IMG/VR virus record: IMGVR_UViG_3300020472_000016
Location: 17,535 to 81,534 of that record
Length of the DNA: 64,000 nt
Strand: one strand, 5' to 3'
DNA from: a virus
Part shown: in pieces, positions 3,130 to 39,700 of the stretch
Layout: each line of letters begins with the position of its first letter
Numbering within the stretch: the first letter of the stretch is position 1
Made by a program: the position numbers and the translations under genes
The notes under the pieces: generated by a model
What the model saw: only the letters and a program-made list of their open reading frames with translations
What the model was told of the DNA's origin: nothing
Databases searched by the model: none

Positions 3130-3276
3130 ATGAGCACCTTAAATCACGAGACAATTCTAGAAACAATCTATGATGAATTCATAGATGAAGCAACACAAAC
3201 AGGCAACATCTCAATGTATACACAAAAAGAGATTGAGTCCATTGTTTATCAACGTTTCGAGGATCTTTGCCAATGA
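3130..3276 (+). CDS. small hypothetical cyanophage protein (48 aa)
   Basis: GGAG SD at 3117-3120; MSTLNHETILETIYDEF...YQRFEDLCQ*. Confidence 0.7.
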   Translation: MSTLNHETILETIYDEFIDEATQTGNISMYTQKEIESIVYQRFEDLCQ

Positions 3277-3302
3277 TTAACAATCACAATGAAATCAGTA
3301 TC

Positions 3303-3530
3303 ATGGCAAGAAAACGTTATGATACAGTCTTATCTTCTCACTTTGGCATGACATTTTGGTTAGATGATGATAACGACTTCTGTTATTGTCCTACCTTTAA
3401 TGATAACAAACCAGATAAAGATAACTGGGGTTATGTATGTGAATGGGATACAATTACATCTACTGATTTAGATAAATTGTTCTACATTCATAAAGAATGT
3501 GTATTAAACAAAGCATCAATCTGGGCATGA
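3303..3530 (+). CDS. hypothetical protein (track start 3267; ATG 3303 preferred)
   Basis: MARKRYDTVLSSHFGMTFWLDDD...; ATGA overlap with next ORF. Confidence 0.65.
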   Translation: MARKRYDTVLSSHFGMTFWLDDDNDFCYCPTFNDNKPDKDNWGYVCEWDTITSTDLDKLFYIHKECVLNKASIWA

Positions 3531-3874
3531 ATTATTATCAACAAGCAAATCCAAATGCTACTAACTCAGAGTTAGATAGTAAGGTAATCATTAGGAGAGA
3601 TTGTTTTAAAGAATGCAAGAGATTAGACATTCCTGGATATCATGAAGAGTTGTTCATTCATGGTGACAATGTTACACTTAGTCCTGCATTTACCATCAAC
3701 TCCGTTGATAACGAGTATCATGTAATGCAACGTCTTAAGTTAACAACAACTAACCAAGAATGCTATGTGTATGAAAAGATTTATCATGCAGATACAGTTG
3801 CTGATTGTAAAGAATATGTGCTACAATATATACAAGAACCTATTACTTTGGAGATCATAAATGGGGAAAGATAA
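3527..3874 (+). CDS. hypothetical protein (track start 3497; ATG 3527 preferred)
   Basis: MNYYQQANPNATNSELD...; ATG overlaps upstream TGA. Confidence 0.7.
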   Translation: MNYYQQANPNATNSELDSKVIIRRDCFKECKRLDIPGYHEELFIHGDNVTLSPAFTINSVDNEYHVMQRLKLTTTNQECYVYEKIYHADTVADCKEYVLQYIQEPITLEIINGER

Positions 3875-4055
3875 AGAGAAACTACGTGCACAAGTTAAGT
3901 CACGTTTCTATTACCTATTTTGGGGAATTGCCACGATCTCAGTTGTATCAGGTCAAATACTTGTAGCATCTGGTTATAACAAATTTGCTAACACATTAGA
4001 TCGCTTGTTTGATACTATTGAGATACAAATTGATGACCCTATTAATTACTATTAG
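3861..4055 (+). CDS. small membrane protein
   Basis: basic N-terminus then hydrophobic FYYLFWGIATISVVSGQILVA segment; GGAG SD. Confidence 0.7.
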   Translation: MGKDKEKLRAQVKSRFYYLFWGIATISVVSGQILVASGYNKFANTLDRLFDTIEIQIDDPINYY

Positions 4056-4061
4056 ATCATA

Positions 4062-4199
4062 ATGTACAAGAACGTTTGTTTAACTTTGTTAGTTGCAATT
4101 AGTGCCACTAACTTATACATGAATACCATAGAACCACGCATCCGTCAATATAAAATAGACACTTTACAAAGTGTCCAGTATGCACACCATTTCCCCTAG
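4062..4199 (+). CDS. small hypothetical protein with hydrophobic N-terminus (45 aa)
   Basis: MYKNVCLTLLVAISATNLYM...HHFP*; fills the gap between neighbouring genes. Confidence 0.45.
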   Translation: MYKNVCLTLLVAISATNLYMNTIEPRIRQYKIDTLQSVQYAHHFP

Positions 4200-4213
4200 A
4201 TTGTGTGTATAAT
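4158..4213 (+). promoter_or_regulatory. early promoter P3 with perfect palindromic box
   Basis: GACACTTT-AC-AAAGTGTC 4158-4175; TATAAT 4208-4213; no good -35. Confidence 0.75.
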
Positions 4214-4244
4214 AAGTATAACAAACAAACACAGACTTTCACCC

Positions 4245-4568
4245 ATGCGTAAGATCGAACAGCAAATGAATCGTGCTCTAGTTAGTAAAAAGAACTGGGC
4301 AGGATCTAACACCACTGTTTCATACAATGAAAACACAAATTGCTCACAAGTCTTATTACATGGTCATCAAATTGCATCATACGATCATAACACTAACGCA
4401 ATCAAATTAGACTCTTGTGGATATGAAACAGTGACCACAAAGAGCAGACTAAATGCACTTTTAGATGAAGTAATGTATGGTGCTAAAGTATTCCAAAGAA
4501 ATTGGACTTGGTTCGTTAGTTATAACAATCAAACAGAATCTTTCGTTGATGGAATGATACTTATCTAG
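4245..4568 (+). CDS. conserved hypothetical phage protein (MRKIEQQM family)
   Basis: ATG 4245 preferred because track start 4203 lies inside promoter P3; LHGHQIA...TVTTKSRLNALL...VFQRNWTWFV. Confidence 0.8.
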   Translation: MRKIEQQMNRALVSKKNWAGSNTTVSYNENTNCSQVLLHGHQIASYDHNTNAIKLDSCGYETVTTKSRLNALLDEVMYGAKVFQRNWTWFVSYNNQTESFVDGMILI

Positions 4569-4610
4569 CACAATCTCCCATTACTAAATATCATTAAACC
4601 AACACAATCT

Positions 4611-4730
4611 ATGCTAGTTAAAGTATCAACAACTCAACAGACTCGCCCCACTAAGTATCAACAACCTGTACAACTCCAAAGTGTATACAATCCCCCTAAA
4701 TCACGTAAATTAAGTATACTTAATGATTAA
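4611..4730 (+). CDS. small hypothetical protein (39 aa)
   Basis: MLVKVSTTQQTRPTKYQQPV...ILND*; late-promoter-like CTAAATA at 4584-4590. Confidence 0.4.
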   Translation: MLVKVSTTQQTRPTKYQQPVQLQSVYNPPKSRKLSILND

Positions 4731-4758
4731 ACAGTTCTTTACACTTTTCCACAACATT

Positions 4759-4977
4759 ATGTCACTTGTTATTACACCAATTGAGTACACAATCGCTGCA
4801 TCAATTAATAACACTTTAGCAGATGAATATCCTGACTTAGATGATAACGCAATTGCTGAATTATCTAAACAAGTTGCAAACAATTATGACTATTCCGCAA
4901 TTTACGATGATATCCTATTTCTTGCAGATGAGCATATTAGATATCTAACAACAGATGCAAGTTTGTACACTAATTAA
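4759..4977 (+). CDS. hypothetical acidic protein (track start 4723; ATG 4759 preferred)
   Basis: MSLVITPIEY...YDYSAIYDDI... Confidence 0.65.
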   Translation: MSLVITPIEYTIAASINNTLADEYPDLDDNAIAELSKQVANNYDYSAIYDDILFLADEHIRYLTTDASLYTN

Positions 4978-5110
4978 CAATGAGTTTTCCACAGGTTATT
5001 AACACTTTTCCACAGCATTGTGTAGTATTACGGTATTATTTTAAATGTTTAATTTAATATGGTTAAGTGTTAGATAGATGAGTTAATCTTGCTGACTGTT
5101 GTTGTCTAAG

Positions 5111-5166
5111 AGTGTACTCTATTATGTAGGAGTTGTCAACATTTAAGGGACACAACACAAAATGTC
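5111..5166 (-). promoter_or_regulatory. leftward sigma70 promoter P4L
   Basis: Minus-strand TTGACA (5139-5134), 17 bp, TACACT (5116-5111); GACA box half-site starts at 5166, 50 nt before the -10. Confidence 0.7.
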
Positions 5167-5204
5167 ATATAGGGGTTGACTTTTCAGCGAATCCTATATA
5201 CAAT
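5149..5204 (+). promoter_or_regulatory. rightward sigma70 promoter P4R
   Basis: GACACAACACAAAATGTC 5149-5166; TTGACT 5176-5181; 17 bp; TACAAT 5199-5204. Confidence 0.75.
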
Positions 5205-5245
5205 AGGTACAGTTACAAAGTTACACTTAGTAATCGAATTTACCC

Positions 5246-5425
5246 ATGGGTAGGACATACAAACGTAACGACACGTATAAGTCAAATAGACCGAAATCTA
5301 TTCGGGAAAAGAGACAACAATCGAGTCGTAATCGTCCACGGTACAATGATACTTTTTCCACAGACTATGGGGAAAAGTATAACAAACCCACCAGACAGTT
5401 TAATTCACATAGTGATGACAATTAG
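5246..5425 (+). CDS. small basic hypothetical protein (59 aa)
   Basis: MGRTYKRNDTYKSNRPKSIREKRQQ...SDDN*; first ATG downstream of P4R. Confidence 0.65.
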   Translation: MGRTYKRNDTYKSNRPKSIREKRQQSSRNRPRYNDTFSTDYGEKYNKPTRQFNSHSDDN

Positions 5426-5501
5426 TCTGTGCACAGTGTAAGATAGTAGAGATAATATACAGGTCAATTCTTTACACTTTCTCTTGCTCTAATTGCCCCT
5501 C

Positions 5502-5669
5502 ATGACTAAAACTTTAACTCTCGAAACTTCACCCCCAGTTAGTGTTAAACTGTGGGCAAAGGGTTCTAAACACTTTTGGGCGTATGATTACCCACAATGT
5601 AATAAGAATGGTCCATTCAGTTCTTATCAACAATGTCTGAAAGATTGCCAGGAGTATAGTAACAAATGA
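5502..5669 (+). CDS. small hypothetical cyanophage protein (55 aa)
   Basis: MTKTLTLETSPPVSVKLWAKG..HFWAYDY..NGPF..; ATGA overlap with the 5666 ORF. Confidence 0.7.
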   Translation: MTKTLTLETSPPVSVKLWAKGSKHFWAYDYPQCNKNGPFSSYQQCLKDCQEYSNK

Positions 5670-5866
5670 GCACACAATCTATACCCCGTTCGTTATCATT
5701 TTTAATGGAAATGTATGACCTTGGTTCTCTACCAGCAGACGAACAGATAGTATTAGCGCAGGGACTAATTGACTGTGGTCTCGATGATACTTTACATGGC
5801 AAATATCAGCAACTATGTGATTACTTTGTTGCAGAGGGTTTGTGTTACTATGTCCCTGACGATTAG
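5666..5866 (+). CDS. hypothetical protein
   Basis: 66-aa ORF coupled to upstream gene; ends in hairpin TGTCCCT/AGGGACA (5851-5871). Confidence 0.7.
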   Translation: MSTQSIPRSLSFLMEMYDLGSLPADEQIVLAQGLIDCGLDDTLHGKYQQLCDYFVAEGLCYYVPDD

Positions 5867-6029
5867 GGACAGTAAATGATATCGACAGTTGGTTAATCAT
5901 CATCGTTGCTTGTTACATAGGGCGTTATTAAAAAAGTACCTAACGCTAAGCTATAAACGTATCCCAGAGCGGTTGTTATATTTAAAAGCATTTTAAAAAA
6001 TTTTACAATATAAAAAAAGGTCACAGAGG

Positions 6030-6188
6030 TTGGACGAGCAAAAAAGAAAATCAGATAGGAAAGCTGCTAAGAAAATTATTAAACAAGCGAAAGAGCATCC
6101 TGGATATTATACCAAAGAGGATGTGAGGTATGCTAAACTTATTAAACGCCGCACGAAGAAGCGCAAAACTGAGAATGATAAGACATGA
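6030..6188 (+). CDS. small very basic protein (52 aa, TTG start)
   Basis: (M)DEQKRKSDRKAAKKIIKQAKEHPGYYTKEDVRYAKLIKRR...*; not in ORF track. Confidence 0.6.
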   Translation: MDEQKRKSDRKAAKKIIKQAKEHPGYYTKEDVRYAKLIKRRTKKRKTENDKT

Positions 6189-6241
6189 ACTCTCATATGT
6201 TGCGATAACCACGTACGCACTCCTAAAAATACTACTACATC

Positions 6242-6730
6242 ATGGCAAGAAAACGTTACGACGAAGTTTACGAGGTATGGAAGGATTACATAGGCATACC
6301 GTGGTGGAGAGAAAAGAAAGCAATCGGAGGGTGTTATGACATCATCCTGAAGTTCTATAAGGAACAGTTCGGGATGGAGTTGTTTGACTACCCATCAGAG
6401 AAGAAGTATCTTTTTAAACCTGAGTACATCGAAGCAGAATCACAACGTCAGGGAGGGAGCATAGTTGTCTACACTGGTAGAAACGATGAGTCCTTCGATA
6501 TGAATATAATGCAGTTCGGTGATGTAATGATCATGCATCTGTTTATCGACCCACTGGCGGGGGGTTACAGGGTCGATGGTAAGCGTTTGTGCAACCATAT
6601 CGGTATATACCTAGGAGATGGATGGATGTTACACCACCCTTACCAGTGCGAATCTGATATTGTCGATCTACATGACAACAACTGTTCGTGGTATTGCACT
6701 AACACAGAGTTGGTTCTGAGAAAAAAGTAA
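6242..6730 (+). CDS. NlpC/P60-family cysteine peptidase (phage tail-associated type)
   Basis: YIGIPW...GGCYDII (catalytic Cys), QFGDVMIM, NHIGIYLGDGWMLHH (His/His). Confidence 0.85.
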   Translation: MARKRYDEVYEVWKDYIGIPWWREKKAIGGCYDIILKFYKEQFGMELFDYPSEKKYLFKPEYIEAESQRQGGSIVVYTGRNDESFDMNIMQFGDVMIMHLFIDPLAGGYRVDGKRLCNHIGIYLGDGWMLHHPYQCESDIVDLHDNNCSWYCTNTELVLRKK

Positions 6731-12225: not shown

Positions 12226-12755
12226 TGGCTTATGGAATGTTACTACCAGTCGCACCTTACACGGGCTTGCCGTGTTCAGGGCATGGTATATGCATCCCAT
12301 CTACTGTACATAGTGTACAGGCATGTGGAACTCCACCAATTCCTTACACGATTAGGATAAAGGAGTTCACTTGCTGGTGGCCACCTTTCCCAATGATACT
12401 CACTGGGACATTAAGTCCACTCAAAGCAACGGTACTAACAAACTTTCTACCGACTTTGACCTTTGGTGATATGTTTATTAACCATCCATCACCGTGTACT
12501 AACATAGTCATATACATGTGTCCTTGTGGAAAGGCAATGTGCCCTATCCCAACACCCATTCCCTGCTCAGTATTGACGATTGAGGATATGGGTATAGGTC
12601 ATATGAGGTTCTTATGGGCCACTACCTTCGCTACATACTGTACCAAGCTACCAATAGGTAGAATTTTGGATCCATTGGGAATCGGATTCCCAGGATTTAG
12701 TTATCCTTGTTCATCCGTAGTTGCGTATGGAAGTCCAAATGTGTTATCATCTTAA
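12225..12755 (+). CDS. PAAR-type spike tip protein (T4 gp5.4-like), Cys/Pro-rich
   Basis: CSGHG...GD....HPSPC...GH...PIGRILDPL...CSSVVAYGSPNV; position before gp25. Confidence 0.75.
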   Translation: MAYGMLLPVAPYTGLPCSGHGICIPSTVHSVQACGTPPIPYTIRIKEFTCWWPPFPMILTGTLSPLKATVLTNFLPTLTFGDMFINHPSPCTNIVIYMCPCGKAMCPIPTPIPCSVLTIEDMGIGHMRFLWATTFATYCTKLPIGRILDPLGIGFPGFSYPCSSVVAYGSPNVLSS

Positions 12756-12770
12756 AAGTTAGAGATTATT

Positions 12771-12920
12771 ATGGCAAAAGCAACAGCAGGTGCATGGGGA
12801 ACTGGTAGTTATGTACCATCCACACCGAAAATGACTAGACAAGGTACTAGTAAGAACACAAAGTATGCTGCTACTTCTAGAAATGGTGCTAGAAAGAAGT
12901 ACAGAGGGCAGGGTAGATAA
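12771..12920 (+). CDS. small basic protein (49 aa, KKYRGQG family)
   Basis: MAKATAGAWG...PKMTRQG...TSRNGARKKYRGQGR*; stop overlaps the SET start (TAATG). Confidence 0.75.
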   Translation: MAKATAGAWGTGSYVPSTPKMTRQGTSKNTKYAATSRNGARKKYRGQGR

Positions 12921-13213
12921 TGTACAAGGCACTGCCTAATTGTTTACATGTGAAAGATAGCTCTGTCGCAGGACAGGGCTTATTTGCTACACAAGATATA
13001 CCAGATGATGTGTATCTTGGCATATCACATGTTGTAGTAGATGAAGAGATTATGAGGACACCTTTGGGTGGTTTTGTGAATCACAGTGAAGAACCCAATT
13101 GTATCAAGGTTTATGAGGAAGAAGATTGGGGAAAGATATACCATATGAGAACTATTAGAGCAATTAAGAAGGGTGAAGAACTGTTCTTAAAGTATACTTT
13201 CTACAAAGTGTGA
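12920..13213 (+). CDS. minimal SET-domain protein-lysine methyltransferase
   Basis: SSVAGQGLFA (motif I), GFVNHSEEPNC (motif III), IKKGEELFLKY (motif IV). Confidence 0.9.
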   Translation: MYKALPNCLHVKDSSVAGQGLFATQDIPDDVYLGISHVVVDEEIMRTPLGGFVNHSEEPNCIKVYEEEDWGKIYHMRTIRAIKKGEELFLKYTFYKV

Positions 13214-13219
13214 TAAATA
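13213..13219 (+). promoter_or_regulatory. T4-type late promoter
   Basis: ATAAATA about 30 nt upstream of the gp25 start. Confidence 0.65.
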
Positions 13220-13248
13220 AAAGATAAAGTGAGTAATAACCACGAATA

Positions 13249-13671
13249 ATGCCTGCCTATAGGTTTAGATCAGAGAAATTTTTCTCAAGAGCGTTTAAGG
13301 ATTTCGCTATTTCATTTAAAGCGAACCCAAACACTAAGGATTTTAGTTCTGTCAGTAATGACAATGCCATAAAACAGTCCGTTCGAAACCTAGTGCTTAC
13401 AAATTTCGGTGAGAGACCTTTCCAAAATGAAATTGGATCTAGGGTTACTCAAATGTTATTCGAACCGTTTGATGTGTTCCTACAAGAGGATCTTCGGGAT
13501 GAAATTAGAAATACTATAGAAAGACTGGAACCTCGTGTCGAGACTGTTTCAGTAGTAGTGAGTTCTCCAGAGAGCTCATCAATTACTAATGACGTTGACG
13601 TTTCTGTTGAGTATAAAATAGTAGGTCAATCACAAGTCCAGAATATCGAGTTCCTATTAGAAAGAACCTAA
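13249..13671 (+). CDS. gp25: baseplate wedge subunit gp25
   Basis: AIKQSVRNLVLTNFGERPF...LFEP...IERLEPRV. Confidence 0.92.
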   Translation: MPAYRFRSEKFFSRAFKDFAISFKANPNTKDFSSVSNDNAIKQSVRNLVLTNFGERPFQNEIGSRVTQMLFEPFDVFLQEDLRDEIRNTIERLEPRVETVSVVVSSPESSSITNDVDVSVEYKIVGQSQVQNIEFLLERT

Positions 13672-13672
13672 A

Positions 13673-15763
13673 ATGCCTGCGATTCCATCAGAATTAACCT
13701 CGCTAGATTTCTTTGAGATCAAGGAATCGATCAAATCTTACTTGCGTACACGTACTGAGTTTACAGATTATGATTTTGAGGGATCTTCTGCGTCATATCT
13801 GATCGATACTTTAGCATATAATACTTACTACACCGCATTTAACGCTAACATGGCGATGAATGAGGCGTTTTTAGAATCTGCAACCGTAAGAGATAACATT
13901 GTTCGGATTGCAAAGCAATTAAATTATACACCTAGGTCAATAAAAGCGGCAAGAGGGTGTATACAAATGGTAATACAGTGTGCAACACTGCCTGGAGGAC
14001 AAACTTACCCTGATACTGTAACGATTAAGAAGGGTGATGTCTTCATTTCTAGAAATAATACGGACACATTTCCATTTTGCTTGTTAAAAGATACTCAAGC
14101 ATCGGTTGATCAGAATACTGGTCTTGCAACTTTCTCTAAAATGATTGTTTATCAGGGAAACTTGCTTTCATATCACTATACTGTTGATGATACTCAGAAA
14201 CAGAACTTCGTTATACCCGCAGAAAACGTAGATACTGAGATTTTGACCGTTTCTGTTAAACCAACAGAGCAATCAGTAGAAGTTGACGAGTATTCTTTAT
14301 CTACAAACGTTGTAGAATTGACATCCACCTCTAGAAACTACTTTTTAGAGGAAACTGAAGACCTTAGATACAAGGTAGTTTTTGGAGATGGTGTTTTAGG
14401 ACGTAAATTAATCGATAATGAGTTCATCATACTCAAGTATGTTGTAACATCTGGTGAAGCTGCTAACGGATGCACTAAATTCTCCTTTATTGGGCAAGCA
14501 ATTGACTCTGCAGACCGTCCCATATCCCCTGCCAGCATGTCTCTAGGGACTATAGACAGTTCGGAAGATGGCACTGACAGAGAAAGTGCATTATCTGTTA
14601 AATTCCGTGCTCCTAGGTCATTCTCAACGCAGAACAGAGCAGTCACAGAAGACGATTATGCTTATATCGTCTCTGACTTATATCCTCAAGCAGCTGCTGT
14701 AACTGCTTATGGTGGTGAGAAACTAAATCCCCCTATTTACGGTAAAGTTTACATAGCAGTTCGTTCTAAGTCAGGTGTAAACCTAAACACTACGACTAAG
14801 ACTCGTATTAAGAACCAACTACTAAAGTATTCGATGGCATCAATTGAGCCAGTCATCGTTGACCCACGTATCTTCTATATTGTACCTAAAGTTTATCCGT
14901 TCTTTAATGGTAACGAGACTTCTAGGTCAGCAAATGAGTTGGCAACGGAAATCTTAAAATCAATTGACAAATTTAACACACAAAATAGAGACGCTAGATT
15001 TGGTGATCGTGTAGAAGCATCTAAGTTTAATTCCATGGTTGATGCTTCTGATGATGCCATTAGTGGTAGTACCACACAGTTTACTATGGGTCAAAACCTT
15101 GATCAATTCACTTTCGGTAATATCTTTACCCAATGTCTTGATTTTGGTAATCCTATTACTAACCCAAGTGATACTGGTGGTAACACCGCAGGAGATTCTA
15201 CTTGCCCACCTAAGTTCTCTGCCATGAAGTCTGGTAAGTTTTATGCTACTGGATATACAGAGAATCTTGCTGATCTAGTGGCTTCTGGTGAGACTGCATA
15301 TGAAACTGCAACACCAGCAGACGAAGTAATCTACGCATCTGGTACAAGGACAACTGAGGTTCTAGTTCCTGTAAATATCAGAGACGATGGTAAAGGCAAC
15401 TTATTGTTAGTTGCTACTCGTAATGAGAAAGAGGTTGTGCTGAACGCAAGCATTGGTACTATTGACTACGGTCAGGGTATTGTTTGTGTAGGACCTCTGA
15501 ATGTAGCAGATACTGGTGATGGTACGACAAGAATTCCTGTAGTGGTTCATCCTGCTACTGATTCTATCATTATTCCTCCTGGAGTTGATCCTACGGTCTT
15601 TAACCCAGAAGTTTATCCTATTGACTTTGTTACTAACCCAACTACTGTCAGTAACTTTGACCCTAATAACTTTAGCGGTTGGAGCTATGGTGGAACCCCA
15701 ATAAATATTATCGAATATCCAGTGGATGCATTTACGTATCCCGAAATCACGACGTGTTTCTAG
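13673..15763 (+). CDS. gp6: baseplate wedge subunit gp6
   Basis: LDFFEIK...FTDYDFEGS..LIDTLAYNTYY..NEAFLESA; FGDGVLG; QNRAVTEDDY. Confidence 0.93.
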   Translation: MPAIPSELTSLDFFEIKESIKSYLRTRTEFTDYDFEGSSASYLIDTLAYNTYYTAFNANMAMNEAFLESATVRDNIVRIAKQLNYTPRSIKAARGCIQMVIQCATLPGGQTYPDTVTIKKGDVFISRNNTDTFPFCLLKDTQASVDQNTGLATFSKMIVYQGNLLSYHYTVDDTQKQNFVIPAENVDTEILTVSVKPTEQSVEVDEYSLSTNVVELTSTSRNYFLEETEDLRYKVVFGDGVLGRKLIDNEFIILKYVVTSGEAANGCTKFSFIGQAIDSADRPISPASMSLGTIDSSEDGTDRESALSVKFRAPRSFSTQNRAVTEDDYAYIVSDLYPQAAAVTAYGGEKLNPPIYGKVYIAVRSKSGVNLNTTTKTRIKNQLLKYSMASIEPVIVDPRIFYIVPKVYPFFNGNETSRSANELATEILKSIDKFNTQNRDARFGDRVEASKFNSMVDASDDAISGSTTQFTMGQNLDQFTFGNIFTQCLDFGNPITNPSDTGGNTAGDSTCPPKFSAMKSGKFYATGYTENLADLVASGETAYETATPADEVIYASGTRTTEVLVPVNIRDDGKGNLLLVATRNEKEVVLNASIGTIDYGQGIVCVGPLNVADTGDGTTRIPVVVHPATDSIIIPPGVDPTVFNPEVYPIDFVTNPTTVSNFDPNNFSGWSYGGTPINIIEYPVDAFTYPEITTCF
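15701..15707 (+). promoter_or_regulatory. T4-type late promoter
   Basis: ATAAATA 60 nt upstream of the giant ORF. Confidence 0.55.
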
Positions 15764-15767
15764 ATAG

Positions 15768-18700
15768 ATGTTTGCAAAAACAGTAAATATTTCCGATAGG
15801 GTCGAGAATCAACTTCCCGCCTTTATCAGAGAAGAGGATGAACAATTTGTCAATTTCTTATTTGAGTACTACAAGTCTCAAGAGAAGACAGGTCGTCCAT
15901 ACAATATTCTAAATAATCTTCTTAATTATTTGGACTTAGATGACTATGACCAGAAGGTCTTAGCATCAACTACAGTTCTAATTAAAGACGTTGACCCAAC
16001 AAATACATTAATCGAAGTAGAGTCCATCGATGGATTCATGGATCGTGATGGATCTGTGATGATCGATAATGAAGTAATATATTACGAGAACACAGTTCGT
16101 GGTCCTGATGCTATCCTCACTCCAGGACTATCATTAGAAGAATTTAATAAGAAAAGACAAGAACTAGAAAATCCAATTCAGGAATTTGATGGGGTTAGAA
16201 CTACATTCCCTCTTAATTTCCTAGGTACCCCTGTATCACCTGTTTCTGCTGAACACCTTGCAGTTACAGTTTTTAATGTTAGTCAGGTTCCTGGTGTTGA
16301 TTACTCCATTAGTGGTAGTCAGATTACATTTACTAATCCACCTAGAGCAAGGATCGGTACTGACTCAGTTGGATCATGTCAGATTGTATATTATATCGGT
16401 TTTGCAGATGCTGTCGTTAAGGAATTAACTTATCCTAACGTATTTGATATTGCTGGTGATGATTCTATGGCATTGAGCTATGAGAGTCTTTCATATTCAC
16501 CAATTTCTGAAATTGGTTTGATTGTTAACCGTAATGGTACTCTTCAGCAACCATATATCGACTATGTGTTGACTGACAACAATAGTAAAATTAAGTTTTT
16601 TGTTAATATCACTAATCAGGATAATTTCCATATTCGTTCTATCGAATATGTGTCTGCTTCCTTTGGTACTGGTGCACATGCAGTTACCAGTGTTGGTGTA
16701 AATGGTCAAATTGAGGCAATTAATGTTAAGGAGGGTGGTAAAGGTTATAAACTGAACTTTGCTCCTAAGGTTGCTATCACATCTAGTACCGAAAAAGGTA
16801 CTGGCGCAGCAGCGAGGACGTTAGTTGCTGGAATTAAAGATATAAGATTAATTAATGGAGGTCAAGGTTATACTTCATACAATCCACCGAAGGTTAAGAT
16901 CACACAACCATCCGATATGGTCAATGGATCTGGTGCTACTGCTTCTATTCAGGTAGATGATACAACTGGAACAGTTTCATCTATTAAGATTACTAACTCA
17001 GGTTCTGGATATGACTTTATACCTGCCATTACCTTTGTAAATCCAAGTGGTGCTATTATTACAGATCCTACCATCGATGGTGAGGGTCGTTTAGACGGTG
17101 CATCCATCACAATCACTGATGGTGGTATAGGTTATAGCAATCCACCTGTAATTTACATTGATCCTGCACCTACAGGTGGTATTGATGCTGTTGCTGATTG
17201 TACAGTATCTCCAGATGGTGAAATTGTAGCTGTTAATATCTCAAATAGAGGTCGTGGATACTTAACACCACCTAGAGCAAGAGTTGTGCAACCAATTGGT
17301 GCTCAAGTTTTAGACGTTACGGTTGCGAATGGTAGTGTTACTAATATCAACCTCCTAACTGGTGGTAAAGGATATACAGATGCACCTTCTGTCTACATTG
17401 TAGATGATCGTAAGGGTTCATTAGGTGAAGCAATCGGTGGTACTGGTGCTCAAGCAGCAGCAACTATCTTTAATGGTGAAATTACTGATATTAACATTAT
17501 AAATTTTGGATCTGGTTATTCAGATAGTGAACCACCTAAGATTTACGTTGCAGAACCATTAGCAGCACAGGCATCTTGTGATGTTGGATTTGGTGAAGTC
17601 ACTGGATTTACTATTTTATCATCTGGTAAGGAATACGAACCTTCTTCTCTTAACGGATGTTCTAGAGGAGTATCTGATGTTGTCACTTTTGACAAATACA
17701 ACAACCAGATCTTTGCAAAAGAGTCACAACTTGCTCAGAGTGACCATGTTTCTGGTTCTTCAGTTAAAAACCTTGATTCCCAGATTATTAGTAAGGTATT
17801 TGACAAGTTCCGTCGTCAATACATGCCTACAATCAATATTGACTACACTCAAGTCAATCCGATTCAGGTTATTAAGACAATTAAGGATTTCTACCTTGCT
17901 AAAGGTACGAAAACTGCTGCACAGTACTTATTTAAGATTCTATTTGGTGAAGAAGTCGATATCTTCTATCCTAGAGATGAATTAATCAAACCATCTGATG
18001 CTTCTTGGGTTGTTGACACAATTTTACGTGCTCAACTGATTTCTGGTAACCCTGCTAACTTGACAAATGCTCAATTGGTTCAGGAAGCAGATGTTGTTGA
18101 CCAAAATGTTAAAGATGCATCGGTTTTGATCGAAAATGTCATTTCCATCATCGAAGGAACTGATATCATCTACGAATTAGCAATATCTGAAGAAACTCTG
18201 ACAGGTGTCTTTAAGATTCCTTATAAAACAGGTCTTGTAGAACCATTAACAACTACAGAGAACATAATTACCGTTGACTCGACTATTGGATGGCCCGAAA
18301 AGAACGGAACCATCATTATTAACGATCAAGAGATTGTTCAGTACAAAGAAAAGTCATTAAACCAGTTTATTGAGTGTACTAGGTCTAAAAATGCCATTGT
18401 AGAGGATTGGGATCCTGGCACAATCATTTATTCGGACATTTTCGTCTATGCAAACAAAGGAACTGATGAAGAAGTCAAATTACGTGTTCTAGGTATCGCA
18501 GAAGCGGGTACAACCGTCTTAGAAGACAGTGGTTCCTACTATTTGCCTGGAGATAAGTTAAATGTTGCTGCTTTAGGTTCTACTGCTGATGATGAGCGTC
18601 TACAATCATGGTTATACAACGTTAAGAAGTTAATTAGCGTTACTAGCATCACTCCTGGTGGTCTTAACAACCAAACTGCAACTGTTATTACAGGCAATGC

Positions 18701-21700
18701 CCATGGTTTGCTTGTAGAAGACAAAGTTACCATTTATGGTGCAAACCCTGCTGTCTATAACGGTACATTTGAGGTTACTGCTCGTCTAGACGACTATTCG
18801 TTCTCTTATAGTATACCTACCCCAATGACTATTGTCCCACAGGGTAATATACTACTTTCTGTTGACCTGAACCGTGGTAAATCCTCAGTATCAACTATTA
18901 ATGAGGTAATTTCACTATTCACCTCTAACGTACAGAACTCTTTCTTTAATAACGATTACGTTTACGTTGCTGCCTCTGGATTGCCCAACTATAAGGTTGG
19001 TCCTTTCACTGGGTCTGCTATGATTCCAGGAAACCAGCGTAAACTGCTTCGTTTCCCTAGAACAGTCTCTACAATCTCCACAAGAACAGAAGTTGCTCCA
19101 AATAGTCCAATTGGATCATGGGTTAACGGTGTTTCTGCCTGGTCTTACAAATCTTCCGAGTTTGTTACTTTTGGTCCTCTAACTGGTATCAATATCAATA
19201 GTGGTGGTGAAGATTATGATGCTGGATCAAAACCAGCACTAGAAATCACTGGTGGTGGCGGTACAGGTGCTTTAGCGACTGTAACCGTTAATGGATCACT
19301 CGATTCAGTCGAAGTTACTGCAGAAGGTACTGGATATACAGAACAACCCCTAATTTCGATTGTTGGAGGTGGTGGTACTGGTGCTACTGCTCAAGCTGTT
19401 GTTACTAACGGTAGAGTAACAAGAATTCTTGTAGAAAACCCAGGAACTGGATATACTGCTCAACCTACTATATCAATCACTGGTGGAAACGGTGCTGGTG
19501 CCCTCGCTGTTGCCTCTGTAAGAGGTCCAATCAGTGCAGTGACCCTATCTAACTCTGGATCAGGATATACCTCAAAACCGACCATTAAACTGAACTCTGG
19601 TGAAGGTGCATTAGCACAACCCATCGTTATCAATGGTAGAATCGTATCTATCGCTATTATTAACTCTGGAGATGCCTATACTTCAGCACCTAAGGTTTAT
19701 ATCAATGGTGATGGATTTGGTGCTCAAGCAACTGCTATTATTGGAACAATTGGTGAAGATAAAGGTAAAGTAATCTCAGTATCCATTACTAACAAGGGTG
19801 TTGGTTATACCCAAGGTATGACATCCGTTAGAATGGAAGCAATCGGTCAATTAGCAACATTTGCTGCTGATGTGTACCAATGGAGAAAGAATGTTGAGTA
19901 TGACTTATCATCTAAGTATGACGTTGCTCGTGGATACGTATTTACGGGATTTAATAACCAATACGGTGGCGAATACGCTCATGTCTCAGATCCTAAGGAA
20001 CTACGTTATGTAGTTGGTGATAATGTATTCTTAAATCCTGCCACACAGAATTTCCAAGAAGTTCCATCAAATATCGAACACTCTCCTATCATTGGATGGG
20101 CATTTGATGGTAACCCAATTTATGGTCCTTATGGTTACATTGATCCAACAGATCAGAACAGTGGCATTCGAAGAATGCGTTCCTCTTACACTTTAAAATC
20201 AGAAGTTGTATATGATATTGACACCAACCCCACTCCAGCTAGAACTGACGGCCCAGCTCTTGCCACATATCCTGCTGGTAATTTCATCAACGATTATAAG
20301 TACACCTTCCAACAAGGAGATCTAGACCCTTACAATGGACGTTTCTGTAAGACTCCAGATTATCCTGCTGGTACATATGCATACTTTGTAACGATTGACG
20401 AGTCAGATGCTGGTATTCCAGTATTCCCTTATGTTATTGGTCCTGAGTACAACTCTGTTGTTGACACATGGAACCTTTCACTTAGTGCTGTACAGGAGAA
20501 CATTCCTGCAGACGTTGCACGTTTCAGAGATCCATATACTAACGTTGATATCGATATTGATCGTCAACCTAACCAAGAATCTGATTCATTTGTAACTGAG
20601 AAGGAAGGAGACCTTCTTATCTTCGAAATTGAGGATATAGACGGTGATGCTATCATTTCACCTTCTGAAATTGCTAATGAGCAAGCTATAACTGAGGAAG
20701 CTGCTCTAGAAATCTATGATTACTTCCCAAGTGTCTCTACTGAGTCAAGAGTTGACATCGAAGTTGATACAACGACTAAATTCGAGAATGCAAGGATTGA
20801 TGGATTTGTTGTAGAGAATGCTGGTTCTTCTTATCAGGTAAATGACACTTTATACTTTGATAATACAGGAACCGACGGTTTTGGTGCTTCTGCTATCATT
20901 GAGTCTGTACAGGGACGTACTATTAATGGATATCAGAAAGAAATCATTAATGACATCTCATATGGTAAAATTACGACTGCAACTGAGCACGAGTTAGTAG
21001 CACAGGATGAGATCATCGTTAATTCGAGAGTTATCACTGATAACACGAATAAGCGTTTCTATATGTCTGTTGTAACAGGTATCGAAGATATTACCGTTAC
21101 TCAAGTTGGTATTGGTTATAATACTCAACTTCCACCGACATATGAGATTATTACCTCTCAAGGACAGGATATTAACTTTAATATCATCCTAGACGAGACT
21201 ACAGGTAAAGTTGGTGAAGTTAACATCATTAACTCTGGTTATGGGTATGATGTAGACAATCCACCTCAAATTAGGGTTTCACATCCTCAACAATACAAGA
21301 AAACTTACTATTGGTTGTCTGAGTACTATGAAGCTGCTGGAAGTATAGAAATATTCGATATTGTAATGGCAACTGACCGTTACATGTATGTTTGTGGTGA
21401 ATTAACTCAAACTAATGGTGATACTGCTGCATTCCTTGCTAAGTTCACCGATTTGGGTGTAATGGTCTGGGATAGAACCCTTCTACCTAGTGCATCTATT
21501 AAGAAGGCACGTTGGAAGTCTATTTACCTTGATGAGACATCTGAAGAGAATAATCTTCTGTATATGATTGGTGAAACCGAATCTCAAGGTACTGCGACAT
21601 ATAATCCAGATATTTTGATTGCTAAGTACGAATCTGGGTTTGATAACTCTAATGCACCTGAAGGTATTGTTAGATGGCAGAAAGAGATCGCTGGTGTCTC

Positions 21701-24700
21701 TGGTGCAGCACGTAGAGACTATGCTGGTGACATCTTCATGGATGACGAGCAAAGAGTCTATATTTGTGGTTGGACAGACACTAATGCTGTAGATGCCTAT
21801 GATATTTGGGTTATGCAGCTCAATAACACTGGTGATGTTGTTGAGAAGAGAAAATTCGCTTCTAATAGCGAAGGTGAGAGAATGGAGCAACTCCATTACA
21901 TCGGAAACAACAAGATGCTCTGGTGTGGTGTTGATCAGGACAATAATGACCTCATATTCGGTGAAATGGAGTACGATGGTGCTAACATCGAACTCAACTA
22001 TGTTAAGAGACTTGCTATAAGTGGTGGTGACGTAAAACGTCCTCGTTTCCAGATTGATGAGTATAACGATCTCTTCTTTATCTGCGATATGTGGAATGGA
22101 ACCAAATTCTATGGTTGTTCCTTCCTTAAGATTGCTTTAAATCAACTTTCCACAAACCCAACAACTCCTGAGTACTATTTCTCTAAGACTATCCAACCTA
22201 GTGGTAATTTTGAGTCTATTAATCATGCAGGACTCAGTATTGATGTATTTGGTAACGTTAGTATCGCTACTGATGTTAAGTACAGTGATAATGACTTACA
22301 AGCGGTTGTTATGTCGTTTAAGTACGATGGAACCCTTCTTAAGAGTACTAATATTAAGGATACTGATGATATTGGATTTAAGACAAGAAATCATATTGTA
22401 GATAACTCTGGTGATGTTATTATTGCTGCTAATAAGCAGAAACCAATTCAGACAGTAGTCAATCGTTTTGATTCTGCACCTATCTCCTTTGCTGGTGATA
22501 TTGCTTCTGGTGCTGCAACTGTTACTAATGTAAGTAATGCTACTAGTCTTGCAACTGGAGATGTTGTCTCAATCACCAGTGGTGCTGGATCAGTAACCCT
22601 TGCTGCTGGTGTAAAAGTTCTAACAGCAACTGGAACTACAGTAACTTTAGACACTAATTTCGGTGGTAGTGGATCTGCCACAGGTGCTATCCTTTCTGCA
22701 GTAGATGTTAGTGGTCTTATAGAAGATAGTAGTAAGCAAGCAAATACAACTGCTACCTTCTCAGATGTAACTAAAGTCATGCATAACACTGCAGACTATA
22801 AGTTTGGTAGTGGGTCACTTAAGTTCTCTGGTGGTCCAACCTATATGAAGCATGCTGGTGCAGGTCTAACAAGTAATTGGACTGCTTCTGTATGGAGTTT
22901 GATGGAAGCATCTCATGCTTCTAACAACCCTAAAGTTGAGATGATCACTATTGATGATGCTTTAGGAAACGGTATAGTAGTAACAGTAGATGGTAATGCT
23001 GCTAGTGGTAACTTAGGTAAGATCGAAATGACCATCGCACCTCAGGGTGGTGGTGGATCAACTATTGCTTCTGTTGGATCTACTTATTGGACAACTTTAC
23101 AAGATAGTGCATTCCACCATTGGGCAGTAGTTAAAGAGACACCTTCTCTTGGTTCTTACACCTACTCTGTTTATTTTGACGGTGTTCAGGTATGTACAGC
23201 AACTGTTGCAACTGAAATTGGTCTTAATGATCTTTATATTGGTGCTAATAAGACTTCACCTGCTACTGGTAACTGCTTCTTAGGTAGTATCGATGATGTA
23301 GTTATCGAACCTAACTCAGTCTTTACTGGTGCTTCATTTACACTACCAACAACTCAATTTGCTATTACCTCTAATAATTCTCAACTCAATCTAATCAAAT
23401 TTGATAGATTACATGATAAGAGAGGTGCTTATAGTGCATTCCCATCAACAACATATACTAAGGCATTAACATTTACAGAGACTAGTGGAATCAATGTTAA
23501 CAATCTTACTAATCCTGTAATCACAGTTTGGGCAGAAGGTTCCTCTGGTTTACAGATCCTTGACATGTCAGATACTATATCAACTCTGGCACCAGGAACT
23601 TATACATTTACCAATGCAACTCATCAATTTGCTTCTAAGACCTCTACAGTACCTTCACCATTAGGTGTAAAACTAAAAGTAGATGCTATTGTCATACCGA
23701 AGTACTATGTTAGAGATGCTGGATTCCAGAAGATTGATAACGTATTAGAATTCCAATTTAACCAAGATGTCAGGTTTACTAAGGGAACTATACTACAGCA
23801 GTATAATTCTCAGGGTGTTGTACAGGCATATGGTACTATTGTTGAGGTTCCAACTGGTACTCTAGATGAACCAGGATTGGGTGATAAGTATAAGATTGGT
23901 AAGATGTTTGGTAACTTTAATGATACCGATCTCTTTAAGAACAATACAGGTGAAGAAAATATAATTAAAGACGTAATTTTCCAGCCAGAACGGGCACAGG
24001 CCGAATGGTTAACTGCTACAGCATATACCACAGATGATCAGGTTTGGAGTGATGGTAAGATCTATAAAGCAACTAATACTGCTACTTCTGGTGCTACTGC
24101 TCCTACCCATGAGATTGGTAACGTAACTGACGGTTCAGTTATATGGCAATACATCAGTGCTGCTGGTCCTATAGAAGTTGCACTAATAGATCATCCATGG
24201 CCAGTTCCTTCCGAACCACTATGGCAAGCAACTAAATCTTATGCTCTTAATGACTTAGTTTACTTTGGTAGACAGAAGTATAAGTGTACAACTGCTGGTG
24301 TAACAGGATCTGTTGCTCCTACTCATACTAGTGGTACTGCTACTGATGGTACTGTGGTCTGGACATGGCAGTCTCAATATGATTCTATACATGCTTATGC
24401 TAGATTCCGTCCATATGATGCTGGTGATTATAAGGTTAAGATCCTAGAAGTCTATAGTGGATCTGACTTTATAGTTGGTGACGTTATCTCACTTGGTGGA
24501 TCTGTAACTACTGGTCCTAAAGAAGGTGATCCTAAGATTGGTCAAATTAATGGTGTAACTACTGTTAAGAAGGTAGAATATGTTGTAAATCTAGATAAGG
24601 ACATTATTAGAAGTGCTAATACACGTACTGACCTTATCTACTGTCAAGCACTATCTCCTCATAGGTTCCTTGCTGGAGATATCCTCTTTGTAGAAGGATT

Positions 24701-36700: not shown

Positions 36701-39700
36701 TGACAAGTGGATTCCTGTATTTAATGTAGAGACAAATACTTTCCAAGTTCGTGTTGGACAATCAATAGAGAAGCAATGGACTCCTAGTGCTGCTGCTTAC
36801 TCACCAACAACAGGTGTTATGGATCTGACTATTGGTGCTCATAATTTCCGTGCTGGTGCATCATTAACACCTTCTAACGCTGACTATAACCCAACATCAG
36901 GTATCATGAGATTGACCATTGCTGGTCATAACATTGCTGAAGGTGAGCATATTAAGATTGCTGATAATGCACTGACATTCACATGTACATTAGATGGTGG
37001 TAGTGCACAGAAGACATATCCAAGACCTTCTACTATTAGTCACACAGCAACTACTGGTACTACACATGATCCTTCTACAGGTATCTTACATATCAATACT
37101 ACGTCTGCACATGACCTAACCAATGGAGATTGGGTTAAGTTTGCTGACAACTCCTTGACATTTACTTGTGGTTTAGATGGAGATCAAACCAACCATTCTT
37201 ATCCTAGGGCAGATGACCCAATGAGCGGTAAGTGGGTACAGATTTCTAATGCTACTGCTAGTGGATTTGATGTACAAGTTCTAAACTCAATACCTCAGTC
37301 TAATACTTCTACTCACGTATTCGTATCTGCTACATCTAATGGTATCCAAACTAGAGACCCCTTCAGTGGTCGTTGGATGGAAGTTAGAGAAGTTGGTACA
37401 GATTGGATTGATGTTAAAGTTCTAACTACTGCACCTTCTACTAATACTAATCCACACACCTTCATAAGTGCTGCTGCTAATTGTATCCAGACATCTGGTG
37501 ACTCTGTAAGAATCTCTGCAAACTCTATTACCTTCACATGTAATAAGGACAGCAATGCTACTCAGCACACATACCCAAGAGCAGCAATGAATGCTGCTGG
37601 TGGTGCTGACCCAGTATATAACGGTGCTGCTAAGATTGTTGCTGTTACTGATACTACTATCAGTGTATGGGTTGGTACTTCTGCTAACACTACATCGCAC
37701 TCCTTTGTTTCTGCTGCTGCTAATGCAGTTAGATCTGGTGGTACATATACACACAACTTTGCATCTGCTGATGCTAATGGTCTTTCACAACAACGTGACT
37801 GGGCACATAACAACTACATTCCAATTTCCGATGTAACTACTAACACATTTAGTGTACAGTTACTACAGAAGATTCCTTCTACTAATACTACTACACACGT
37901 ATTCCAGTCTGCTGCTTCTAATAGCATTCATAGAGGTGTTATACAGAAACAAAATGGATGGATCCAACTTAATGTTGGTACTTCATCTAATACTTCATGG
38001 CATGGATTTAAGTTCGCTGATTCTGGTGCTCTGATAAGTGGTGGTTACTATGATCACTCATTTATATCTGCATCTACAGGTGCTGTACATACAGGTGGTG
38101 ACTATATTCACGACTTTGTATCTGCTGTCACTAATGGTATTACCAGACAGAATCCTTCAGGTATAGTAACACTTGATATTGGTGCTTCTGGACCTAATGA
38201 TCAGTATACTCATACCTTCGTATCTGCTGCTAACGGCGCATTGATTACTGGTGGTAACTATGCTCACAAGTTTGTATCTGCTACAGACCGTGCATTGGTA
38301 AGTGGTGGTAATTATGAGCACACATTTGTATCTGCTGCATCTAACTCAGTTAATGTAACTGGTGGATCTCAGTTAACTCCAACTAATGCTGCTTATGATC
38401 CTCTAACTGGTCATCTAACATTGACCTTTGGTTCTGCTCATGGGTTGACTGCTAACATCAATACAGTCACAATTGATAACAACGCAATACAGTTCTCTTG
38501 TGAATTTGATGGTAATTCATCCACTCATGGATATCCAAGATCAACTGATCCTGCTTCGGGTACAACTTTAACTATAATTTCTAACACAACAGATACTATT
38601 ACTGTTAATATTGGATCCACTCCTGAGGTTAACTTTAACGTAACCGACGCTACCTATGATGCTGGTACAGGTAACCTAACACTTGATATTGGGTCTAATA
38701 GTCTACAAGGTCCTACACTTGGTTTAACACCTACTGATGCCGCTTACAACCCCACTACAGGTATCATTACACTTACTATCAACGGTCATGGATTCGCTAA
38801 CGGTGAATACATTAAGATTGCTGATAATGGATTAACTTTCACTTGTACTCAAGGTGGTGGCAACCACTCATATCCAAGAGTTACTGACCCTGCATCTGGT
38901 AAGTGGTTAACAATTTCTAATGTACAGACAAATACATTTGATGTACAGGTATTAGATACAGTTCCTTCCACCAACACAACAACTCATACACTGGTTAGCA
39001 TTGCTAATGGTTGCGTTGATAAGGCAGGTGAATCTGTCATGGTTAGACCTAATTCTTTGACCTTCACATGTCAACAGGATAACTACTCTACTAACCATAC
39101 ATATCCTCGTGCTAAGGATCCATCATTCGATAGACCTATTCCTATTGTTGGTAAGTCTGGTCAGACTATTACTATCGATGTTGGTAACTCTGCCATCGTT
39201 ACATATACTCCAACAAATGCAACATATGATGCTGCAACTGGATATCTAGCAGTAACAATTGGTGCACACGGATTGTCAACAGGAACTACTGTTAAGTTGG
39301 CACCTAACTCCTTTACATTCACATGTACAAGAGACGGCAATACTGCTCAGAAGACATATCCTAGAGGTGGTCATACCTTCGCTCAGAAGTTCTATGCTGA
39401 TCTTGACTTCTATCCTTACAATCAAGGTGAATATGTAATCACTGCTGATACTGCTAATCCTAAGTGTGCTGACGTAGCATCTGCTATTACATCCTTGATG
39501 GGTCTGTATACTGATGCTATTGCTACACCTGCAAGTCTAACTGACGGTACTATTAGTAAGACTCTACCAAATATTTGGCCAGTTAAGTACGCTTCAGAAA
39601 TGGTAATGCGTGATGTTAGTGTCACCTTCGATCAGAATGGTGCTACTACTGGTGATTGGAATACTACTTGTGTTGGTGTTGCAGATAAGATCGAAGGATT

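Follow-up and report, generated by a model that had tools for sequence, protein, structure and literature searches.

The locus described here, which we call the module, occupies an intergenic region between two genes on the + strand and contains two predicted divergent promoters, an AT-rich tract, several DnaA-type boxes, and a dyad (Table 1). It lies in a stretch of 64,000 nucleotides (the window) that forms the final 64 kb of an 81.5-kb virus contig from IMG/VR with an estimated completeness of 44%. Based on predicted proteins that include gp25, gp6, a PAAR protein, and several 2OG-Fe(II) oxygenases, the contig is assigned to a T4-like cyanomyovirus (Kyanoviridae). The closest cultured relatives found using BLAST against cultured phages are Synechococcus and Prochlorococcus phages of this family. 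Megablast against phage records gave no matches, and searches for tRNAs and Rfam families gave none either. The ORF map showed that the + strand carries nearly all genes up to 57.6 kb and that the module is not at a switch in transcription direction. The first-pass annotation of this DNA had described the region as the longest intergenic stretch in the window, which was not correct: when ORFs of 45 aa or longer are mapped, there are longer gaps at 1937-2262, 58604-59526, and 63170-63664. The + strand also contains two giant ORFs, 15768-43226 (9152 aa) and 49786-57150 (2454 aa), in the baseplate/fibre region just past gp6; the 9152-aa ORF is of unusual length even among cyanomyoviruses.

Table 1. 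Features of the module and its borders, in window coordinates.
Feature	Position	Strand	Remarks
DnaA-type box TTTTCCACA	4745..4753	+	upstream 72-aa gene has its ATG (4759) 6 nt downstream
DnaA-type box TTTTCCACA, distal box of left cluster	4985..4993	+	retained in close relatives
DnaA-type box TTTTCCACA	5006..5014	+	21 bp from box 4985; 56 nt ahead of the invariant core
AT-rich tract, candidate DNA unwinding element	5032..5075	.	holds the core GTTAAGTGTT at 5062-5071
Conserved TTGTTGTCT block	5100..5109	-	holds the predicted leftward start site (~5104)
Leftward promoter PL (predicted)	5111..5139	-	TTGACA (5139-5134), 17-nt spacer, TACACT (5116-5111); -35 inside near-invariant GAGTTGTCAAC; no downstream gene
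Dyad GACA-N10-TGTC	5149..5166	.	midway between PL and PR; member of the promoter-cassette dyad family
Rightward promoter PR (predicted)	5176..5204	+	TTGACT (5176-5181), 17-nt spacer, TACAAT (5199-5204)
Predicted 5' leader of the PR transcript	5211..5245	+	35 nt; 31-36 nt across lineages
Small basic protein gene	5246..5425	+	59 aa, MGRTYKRND..., phrog_1464; first PR-driven gene
Right box pair inside the small gene	5354..5376	.	TTTTCCACA at 5354-5362 (+), then facing TGGGGAAAA at 5368-5376, one mismatch

Using the flanking small proteins as queries, a DNA pattern for the AT core, and BLAST against cultured phages, we gathered ten lineages that contain the module as a single copy. These are the window group, L021, L034/L081, L072/L078/L082, L038, and the phages ACG-2014d, S-SZBM1, S-WAM1, P-TIM40, and Sf-FS3. 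The scan with the AT-core pattern yielded 70 matches, comprised of 16 true homologues with boxes, a conserved -35, or both, and 54 chance matches with neither. The order of elements is constant. From left to right there is an upstream gene, zero to four DnaA-type boxes, the AT tract with GTTAAGTGTT, a TTGTTGTCT-like block, and the -10 of PL, followed by the 17-nt spacer, GAGTTGTCAAC with the -35 of PL, approximately 36 bp, PR, a leader of 31-36 nt, and usually the MGRTYKRND protein (phrog_1464). The copy of this protein in ACG-2014d is encoded 9.5 kb away from the module.

The left flank of the module is variable. In S-WAM1, S-SZBM1, and P-TIM40 an oxygenase gene adjoins the module. The orthologue of this gene in the window contig is located approximately 10 kb further left and has an identity of 69-72% with those of S-WAM1 and S-SZBM1 and 47% with that of P-TIM40. 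The intervening 10 kb (contig 12445-22500, corresponding to window -5090 to 4970) contains more genes, including a small-ORF island with promoter cassettes. This separation indicates that the left edge of the module is a hot spot for insertions. Many related metagenomic contigs terminate 0-2 kb from the module. The island to the left is thus hypervariable, and the module forms its fixed right border. According to the title of a study listed in PMC3016281, T4 origins coincide with recombination hot spots.

PL and PR, which had been proposed in the first-pass annotation and whose sequences and positions agree with it, are predicted sigma70-type promoters for the host RNA polymerase. In a 12-kb scan, matches to sigma70-like promoters were not enriched (36 found versus 42.6 expected), and PL and PR are credible only because the relatives conserve both. 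The -35 of PL is exact in nine of the ten lineages. A -10 of the form TAnnnT at a distance of 17 nt is found in eight of ten, including the lineages with no boxes, and the sequence of the spacer drifts; ACG-2014d and the L072 group have a degenerate PL. In all lineages PR resembles TTGAC(T/A)-17-TAnAAT, with TATAAT in several. The leader of the PR transcript can be drawn by eye with a hairpin of 5-8 bp at the same place in four lineages (including the window, L021, L081, and L072), with differing sequences and registers. RNAalifold did not recover this hairpin, and the one structure that it returned was a 5-bp stem that surrounds the start codon and is invariant.

The dyad between the two promoters was present as first annotated, and both -10 hexamers begin exactly 50 nt from its ends. 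The annotation had treated it as a feature of an origin locus, and this did not hold, since the dyad is not specific to the locus and is part of a repeated promoter cassette. Other copies are located at 1937, 2864, and 4158 in the window and at 14681 and 15041 of the contig, upstream of the window, and each copy in the family is approximately 50 nt before a -10. The cassette consists of the dyad (best copy GACACTTTACAAAGTGTC) approximately 50 nt ahead of a TATAAT-like -10, in most cases with no -35. This lack of a -35 suggests that the cassettes are activator-dependent early promoters in the small-ORF island. Among relatives, the left half of the module dyad is retained in most, and the right half is retained in three and altered elsewhere; in L072 it has turned into the -35 of PR. 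Given its membership in the cassette family and its partial conservation at the module, we rejected the dyad as an origin mark. It is most likely a site for a promoter-associated factor.

The 9-mer TTTTCCACA had been annotated as the cyanobacterial DnaA box, and this agrees with the literature, where the general DnaA box consensus is TT(A/T)TNCACA and the 9-mer of cyanobacteria is TTTTCCACA (PMC4674748). The window contains four copies (4745, 4985, 5006, and 5354), all on the + strand and all exact matches to the consensus. Shuffled sequence contains a mean of 0.85 copies and a maximum of three copies per 64 kb versus the four observed. A count over the whole 81.5-kb contig, which had been suggested as a check, found that these four are its only copies and that all are within 620 bp. 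Simple arithmetic gives a chance of approximately 2e-6 for all four copies to fall within 618 bp. This cluster of consensus boxes is unique in the contig, as is expected of a bacterial oriC-type origin. The 21-bp spacing between the boxes at 4985 and 5006 was verified. Among the additional boxes listed in the first-pass annotation, those at 4745 and 5354 are as described, whereas the one at 5368 is imperfect here (TGGGGAAAA) and perfect in close relatives. The box at 4745 is located within a 29-nt repeat (4734-4762) with 86% identity to 4995-5023. We also considered whether this repeat is an RpaB (HLR1) or Pho-box element and rejected this reading on inspection: only one copy (4739-4756) resembles half of such a direct repeat, and the relatives do not contain that part.

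The boxes also cluster in the relatives. All five copies of TTTTCCACA in a related 61-kb contig are within 630 bp, and all three copies in a 65-kb contig are clustered at the module. In complete genomes, the copies at the locus are four of six in ACG-2014d, four of eight in S-SZBM1, and three of six in S-WAM1. The number, position, and orientation of the boxes vary by lineage; the 9-mer and a phasing of 11 or 21 bp persist, and the offsets of the boxes from GTTAAGTGTT likewise differ by 11 or 21 bp. This phasing was also found in S-WAM1, L072/L078, and ACG-2014d. The left cluster is comprised of two direct copies in the window, four boxes arranged head-to-tail with an exact 11-bp period and in the opposite orientation to the window in ACG-2014d, converging pairs in L072, L078, and S-SZBM1, and three direct boxes, the last two abutting, in S-WAM1. 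The abutting pair of S-WAM1 matches the arrangement in oriC of S. elongatus, which is reported to contain two abutting boxes (PMC8287927). Variants in the relatives, TTATCCACA (L078), TATTCCACA, GTTTCCACA, and ATTTCCACA, are within the consensus of PMC4674748 or one step off it, and judged by sequence they are variants that DnaA tolerates. As a host-side control, a cyanobacterial genome was found to contain five boxes, two of them forming an 11-bp pair, clustered 130 bp ahead of dnaN. In a scan of bacterial genomes, tandem boxes were present in many phyla among the matches listed. ACG-2014d has a second box group (37665-37735; positions 4860-4930 in L016) that contains one imperfect reverse copy and two direct copies 11 bp apart. 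This group abuts the -35 of a TTGACA-17-TAAACT site and is 900 bp to the right of the main module.

The facing box pair inside the small gene provides information about what is conserved. The two boxes begin at nucleotides 109 and 123 of the gene. In L021 the first in-gene box is shifted by one base so that the peptide changes from FST to VFHK while the DNA box remains intact. Since the box is conserved in another reading frame, the DNA motif is under selection. The boxes are, however, not found in all lineages. P-TIM40, which infects Prochlorococcus NATL2A, and Sf-FS3, which infects Synechococcus WH8102, retain the AT core, PL, and PR, yet have no boxes at the locus and no box cluster genome-wide. 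These box-less cassettes lead us to conclude that the boxes are accessory and that DnaA is not part of the core mechanism.

Boxes that are selected and also dispensable in some phages are what an accessory take-over function might produce. One such function would be that of a DnaA sponge like datA, where the box clusters of the multiplying phage genomes sequester host DnaA and thereby keep the host chromosome from starting further rounds of replication. The 4-7 consensus boxes per genome copy, arranged in phased arrays, are consistent with this; this is a low number of sites per genome, and the boxes are always at the module beside the AT tract and PL, whereas a sponge could be anywhere. That their phasing and their position relative to the core stay constant points to an architectural role at the site itself and argues against titration, which we consider very unlikely. 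We also considered whether a phage protein uses the 9-mers as iterons, as with lambda O at ori-lambda or T4 oriE with repEA/repEB. One candidate would be the adjacent small and very basic protein (phrog_1464) encoded directly after PR in most lineages, with some of the sites within its own gene, and T4 oriE has both iterons and small adjacent rep genes (PMC3016281). Against this, the sites fit the host DnaA consensus, its tolerated variants, and an oriC-like spacing, ACG-2014d has the richest array and its copy of the protein 9.5 kb off, and P-TIM40 has the protein and no boxes. This makes an iteron function highly improbable.

The very AT-rich tract noted in the first-pass annotation was confirmed, with A or T at 30 of 33 positions from 5034. 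The tract at 5032-5075 ranks second to fourth among the least stable stretches of 30-60 bp in the 81.5 kb and begins approximately 30 nt past the predicted start of PL. Its 10-nt core GTTAAGTGTT occurs once in the contig, is invariant in eight of the ten lineages, and is slightly altered in S-WAM1 and Sf-FS3. The annotation had drawn an analogy between this locus and T4 origins that use a promoter and a downstream unwinding element. This analogy is supported for the anatomy: minimal T4 oriF and oriG consist of such a pair, with an R-loop transcript that primes leading-strand synthesis (PMC3016281), and PL is predicted to fire into a tract with nearly the most extreme AT richness. Origins of this type are further characterized by a promoter that is active in early infection and that no gene needs for its expression, by an R-loop that persists, and by plasmids with the element replicating autonomously during infection. 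The unwinding element of T4 does not depend on a particular sequence (PMC3016281). The core of the module is, by contrast, invariant, suggesting that it has a sequence-specific function involving either a protein or an RNA. The sole 40-bp stretch of the contig that is less stable than this tract is at 5977-6016. It contains TTTAAA-17-TACAAT just 5' of an ORF for a very basic protein of 52 aa (6030-6188, phrog_14921).

As the first-pass annotation stated, the leftward transcript contains no credible gene. There is a 14-codon ORF across the boxes that is not conserved, and no conserved ORF was found in the predicted PL transcript among the lineages. RNAalifold found no conserved pairs in this RNA, the z-score of its fold was -0.34, no terminator was found, and there was no match in Rfam. 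We thus rejected the possibility that PL drives a structured small RNA gene. An unstructured regulatory RNA that acts antisense to the upstream early gene, or in trans with the core as a seed, is a further reading of PL. PL is conserved and gene-less, the short invariant core within a variable transcript resembles the seed of an sRNA, and contigs from four marine RNA libraries aligned to 3500-6500 cover the intergenic region and its flanks. These contigs are from relatives and are weak evidence because they contain no strand information; they also have no end information and thus reveal no start site, and their depth cannot be used to rank regions. The lack of conserved secondary structure, terminator, and Rfam match counts against a regulatory RNA, as does the upstream gene, the proposed antisense target, which differs among lineages. 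Such an RNA would also leave the DnaA boxes unexplained, and we think it quite unlikely to be the function of PL.

We examined the locus for two other properties of origins. The first-pass annotation had predicted a minimum of cumulative GC skew here, and this prediction failed. The skew rises near-monotonically over the contig, ACG-2014d, and S-WAM1 with no inflection at the module and with only small local dips in the small-ORF island. The C-rich + strand at 2-5 kb that had been seen by eye is real, but it reflects a local dip, and the curve rises everywhere else. In T4, oriE, oriF, and oriG are at switches of transcription direction or skew, and oriA and oriC are outside skew shifts (PMC3016281). 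The missing inflection is therefore weak counter-evidence. The second property is the basal unwinding grammar of bacterial oriC, in which one box or a pair of boxes is followed, in a fixed orientation, by a short GC-rich spacer and then by three or more DnaA-trios (PMC8287927). No conserved DnaA-trios were found behind the boxes across lineages; the window has a weak run of three trios that is lost in the close relative L029. The box nearest the AT tract faces the tract in the window and S-WAM1 and faces away from it in five other lineages. With trios not conserved, orientation not fixed, and no skew switch, we rejected a DnaA-dependent origin with the grammar of bacterial oriC.

Variable orientation of the boxes suits a roadblock or architectural role better than directional unwinding of an origin. 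This raises the possibility that the module has no origin function and that DnaA on the boxes acts in transcription control only, as a repressor, roadblock, or insulator. Bound DnaA would then block read-through from the upstream island, limit antisense transcription from PL, and tune PR so that early expression tracks the DnaA state of the host. The positions of the boxes on both sides of the promoter pair are consistent with this, and one box of the window is inside a weak promoter-like site (4999-5028). In addition, the second box pair of ACG-2014d is next to another promoter-like site, and no terminator was found after the upstream gene. Transcription control leaves unexplained why box-less phages retain a gene-less promoter and an invariant AT core, and why so few stretches of the contig are less stable than the tract. 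We regard it as unlikely.

The reading that we tentatively prefer, and to which our comparison gives a little less than an even chance, is that the module is a transcript-primed origin like T4 oriF/oriG where docking of host DnaA is optional. The first-pass annotation had proposed a transcript-primed origin that may use host DnaA. Part of this proposal is supported by the conserved, gene-less PL that points into the AT tract and by the unique box cluster, whereas the absence of a skew inflection and the existence of box-less phages are against it. In a transcript-primed origin, the PL transcript would form an RNA-DNA hybrid within the AT tract and prime leading-strand synthesis by the phage replisome. 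Divergent transcription from PR could add negative supercoiling and make melting easier. The boxes, spaced 11 or 21 bp apart, would be an optional add-on at which host DnaA docks in phase beside the tract. Bound DnaA might help to open the tract or to keep it open. Alternatively, it might stall the polymerase so that the end of the RNA remains at the tract, or couple the start of phage replication to the host initiator's state. The module is the best candidate, although unproven, for the replication start of T4-like cyanophages. The wider proposal that T4-like cyanophages begin their first round of replication at the module and that most lineages recruit host DnaA there is unlikely to hold as a whole.

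Comparison with known systems places the module closest in anatomy to oriF (in uvsY) and oriG (in gene 34) of T4. In both cases a T4-like phage has a promoter for host RNA polymerase, a predicted one in the module, followed within approximately 100 bp by an A+T-rich unwinding element (PMC3016281), this promoter does not serve a gene, and a hypervariable, recombination-prone flank adjoins. The module differs in that its promoter is of a plain sigma70 type that is not MotA-dependent, its tract has an invariant sequence core rather than being sequence-independent, it contains host DnaA boxes, and it is not at a switch in transcription direction or skew. With cyanobacterial oriC, which is found beside dnaN, the module shares the 9-mer, the tolerated variants, spacings of 9, 11, or 21 bp, mixed orientations, and an adjacent AT-rich tract (PMC4674748, PMC8287927). 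Unlike oriC, it has no conserved DnaA-trios, fixed box orientation, or skew switch, its boxes are missing in two phages that retain the rest of the module, and it is carried by a phage with its own helicase, primase, and polymerase. T4 oriE, which has iterons and repEA/repEB, is similar in having phased short repeats, with no proven role, beside small early genes (PMC3016281). The repeats of the module are, however, host DnaA boxes rather than private 12-mers, and the small protein is not always adjacent.

Host DnaA boxes on a non-chromosomal or non-origin element, as in the module, are also found in datA-type titration loci, P1 oriR, and lambda. Unlike the module, elements of the P1 oriR and lambda type need their own initiator and the host replisome. 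No T4-like phage is known to require DnaA. A large fraction of marine Synechococcus and Prochlorococcus cells is killed by T4-like cyanophages. In the literature we found no paper on DnaA boxes or mapped replication origins in T4-like cyanophages, nor any on the module.

The module provides a precise, single-copy target of approximately 250 bp in the cultured phages S-WAM1, S-SZBM1, and ACG-2014d. Because P-TIM40 and Sf-FS3 are natural box-less controls for this target, both the start of replication and the use of the host initiator are directly testable. Should DnaA be involved, phage replication would be linked to cell-cycle control of the host; should it be uninvolved, the boxes would still be a new case of a phage borrowing the sites of a host regulator. 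If DnaA is recruited to an origin at the module, phage DNA synthesis would be gated by the replication and light state of the host. A T4-like phage would thereby have its first known origin coupled to a host initiator, and the most abundant group of marine cyanophages its first mapped origin.

A further repeat was found in the genes around the module. A 23-nt sequence occurs at 3300-3322 and 6239-6261 with 96% identity and spans a start codon and the first seven codons (MARKRY). One site belongs to an NlpC/P60-like gene (6242-6730) and the other is in the interior of an 87-aa ORF (3267-3530). This repeat may be a trace of cassette shuffling.
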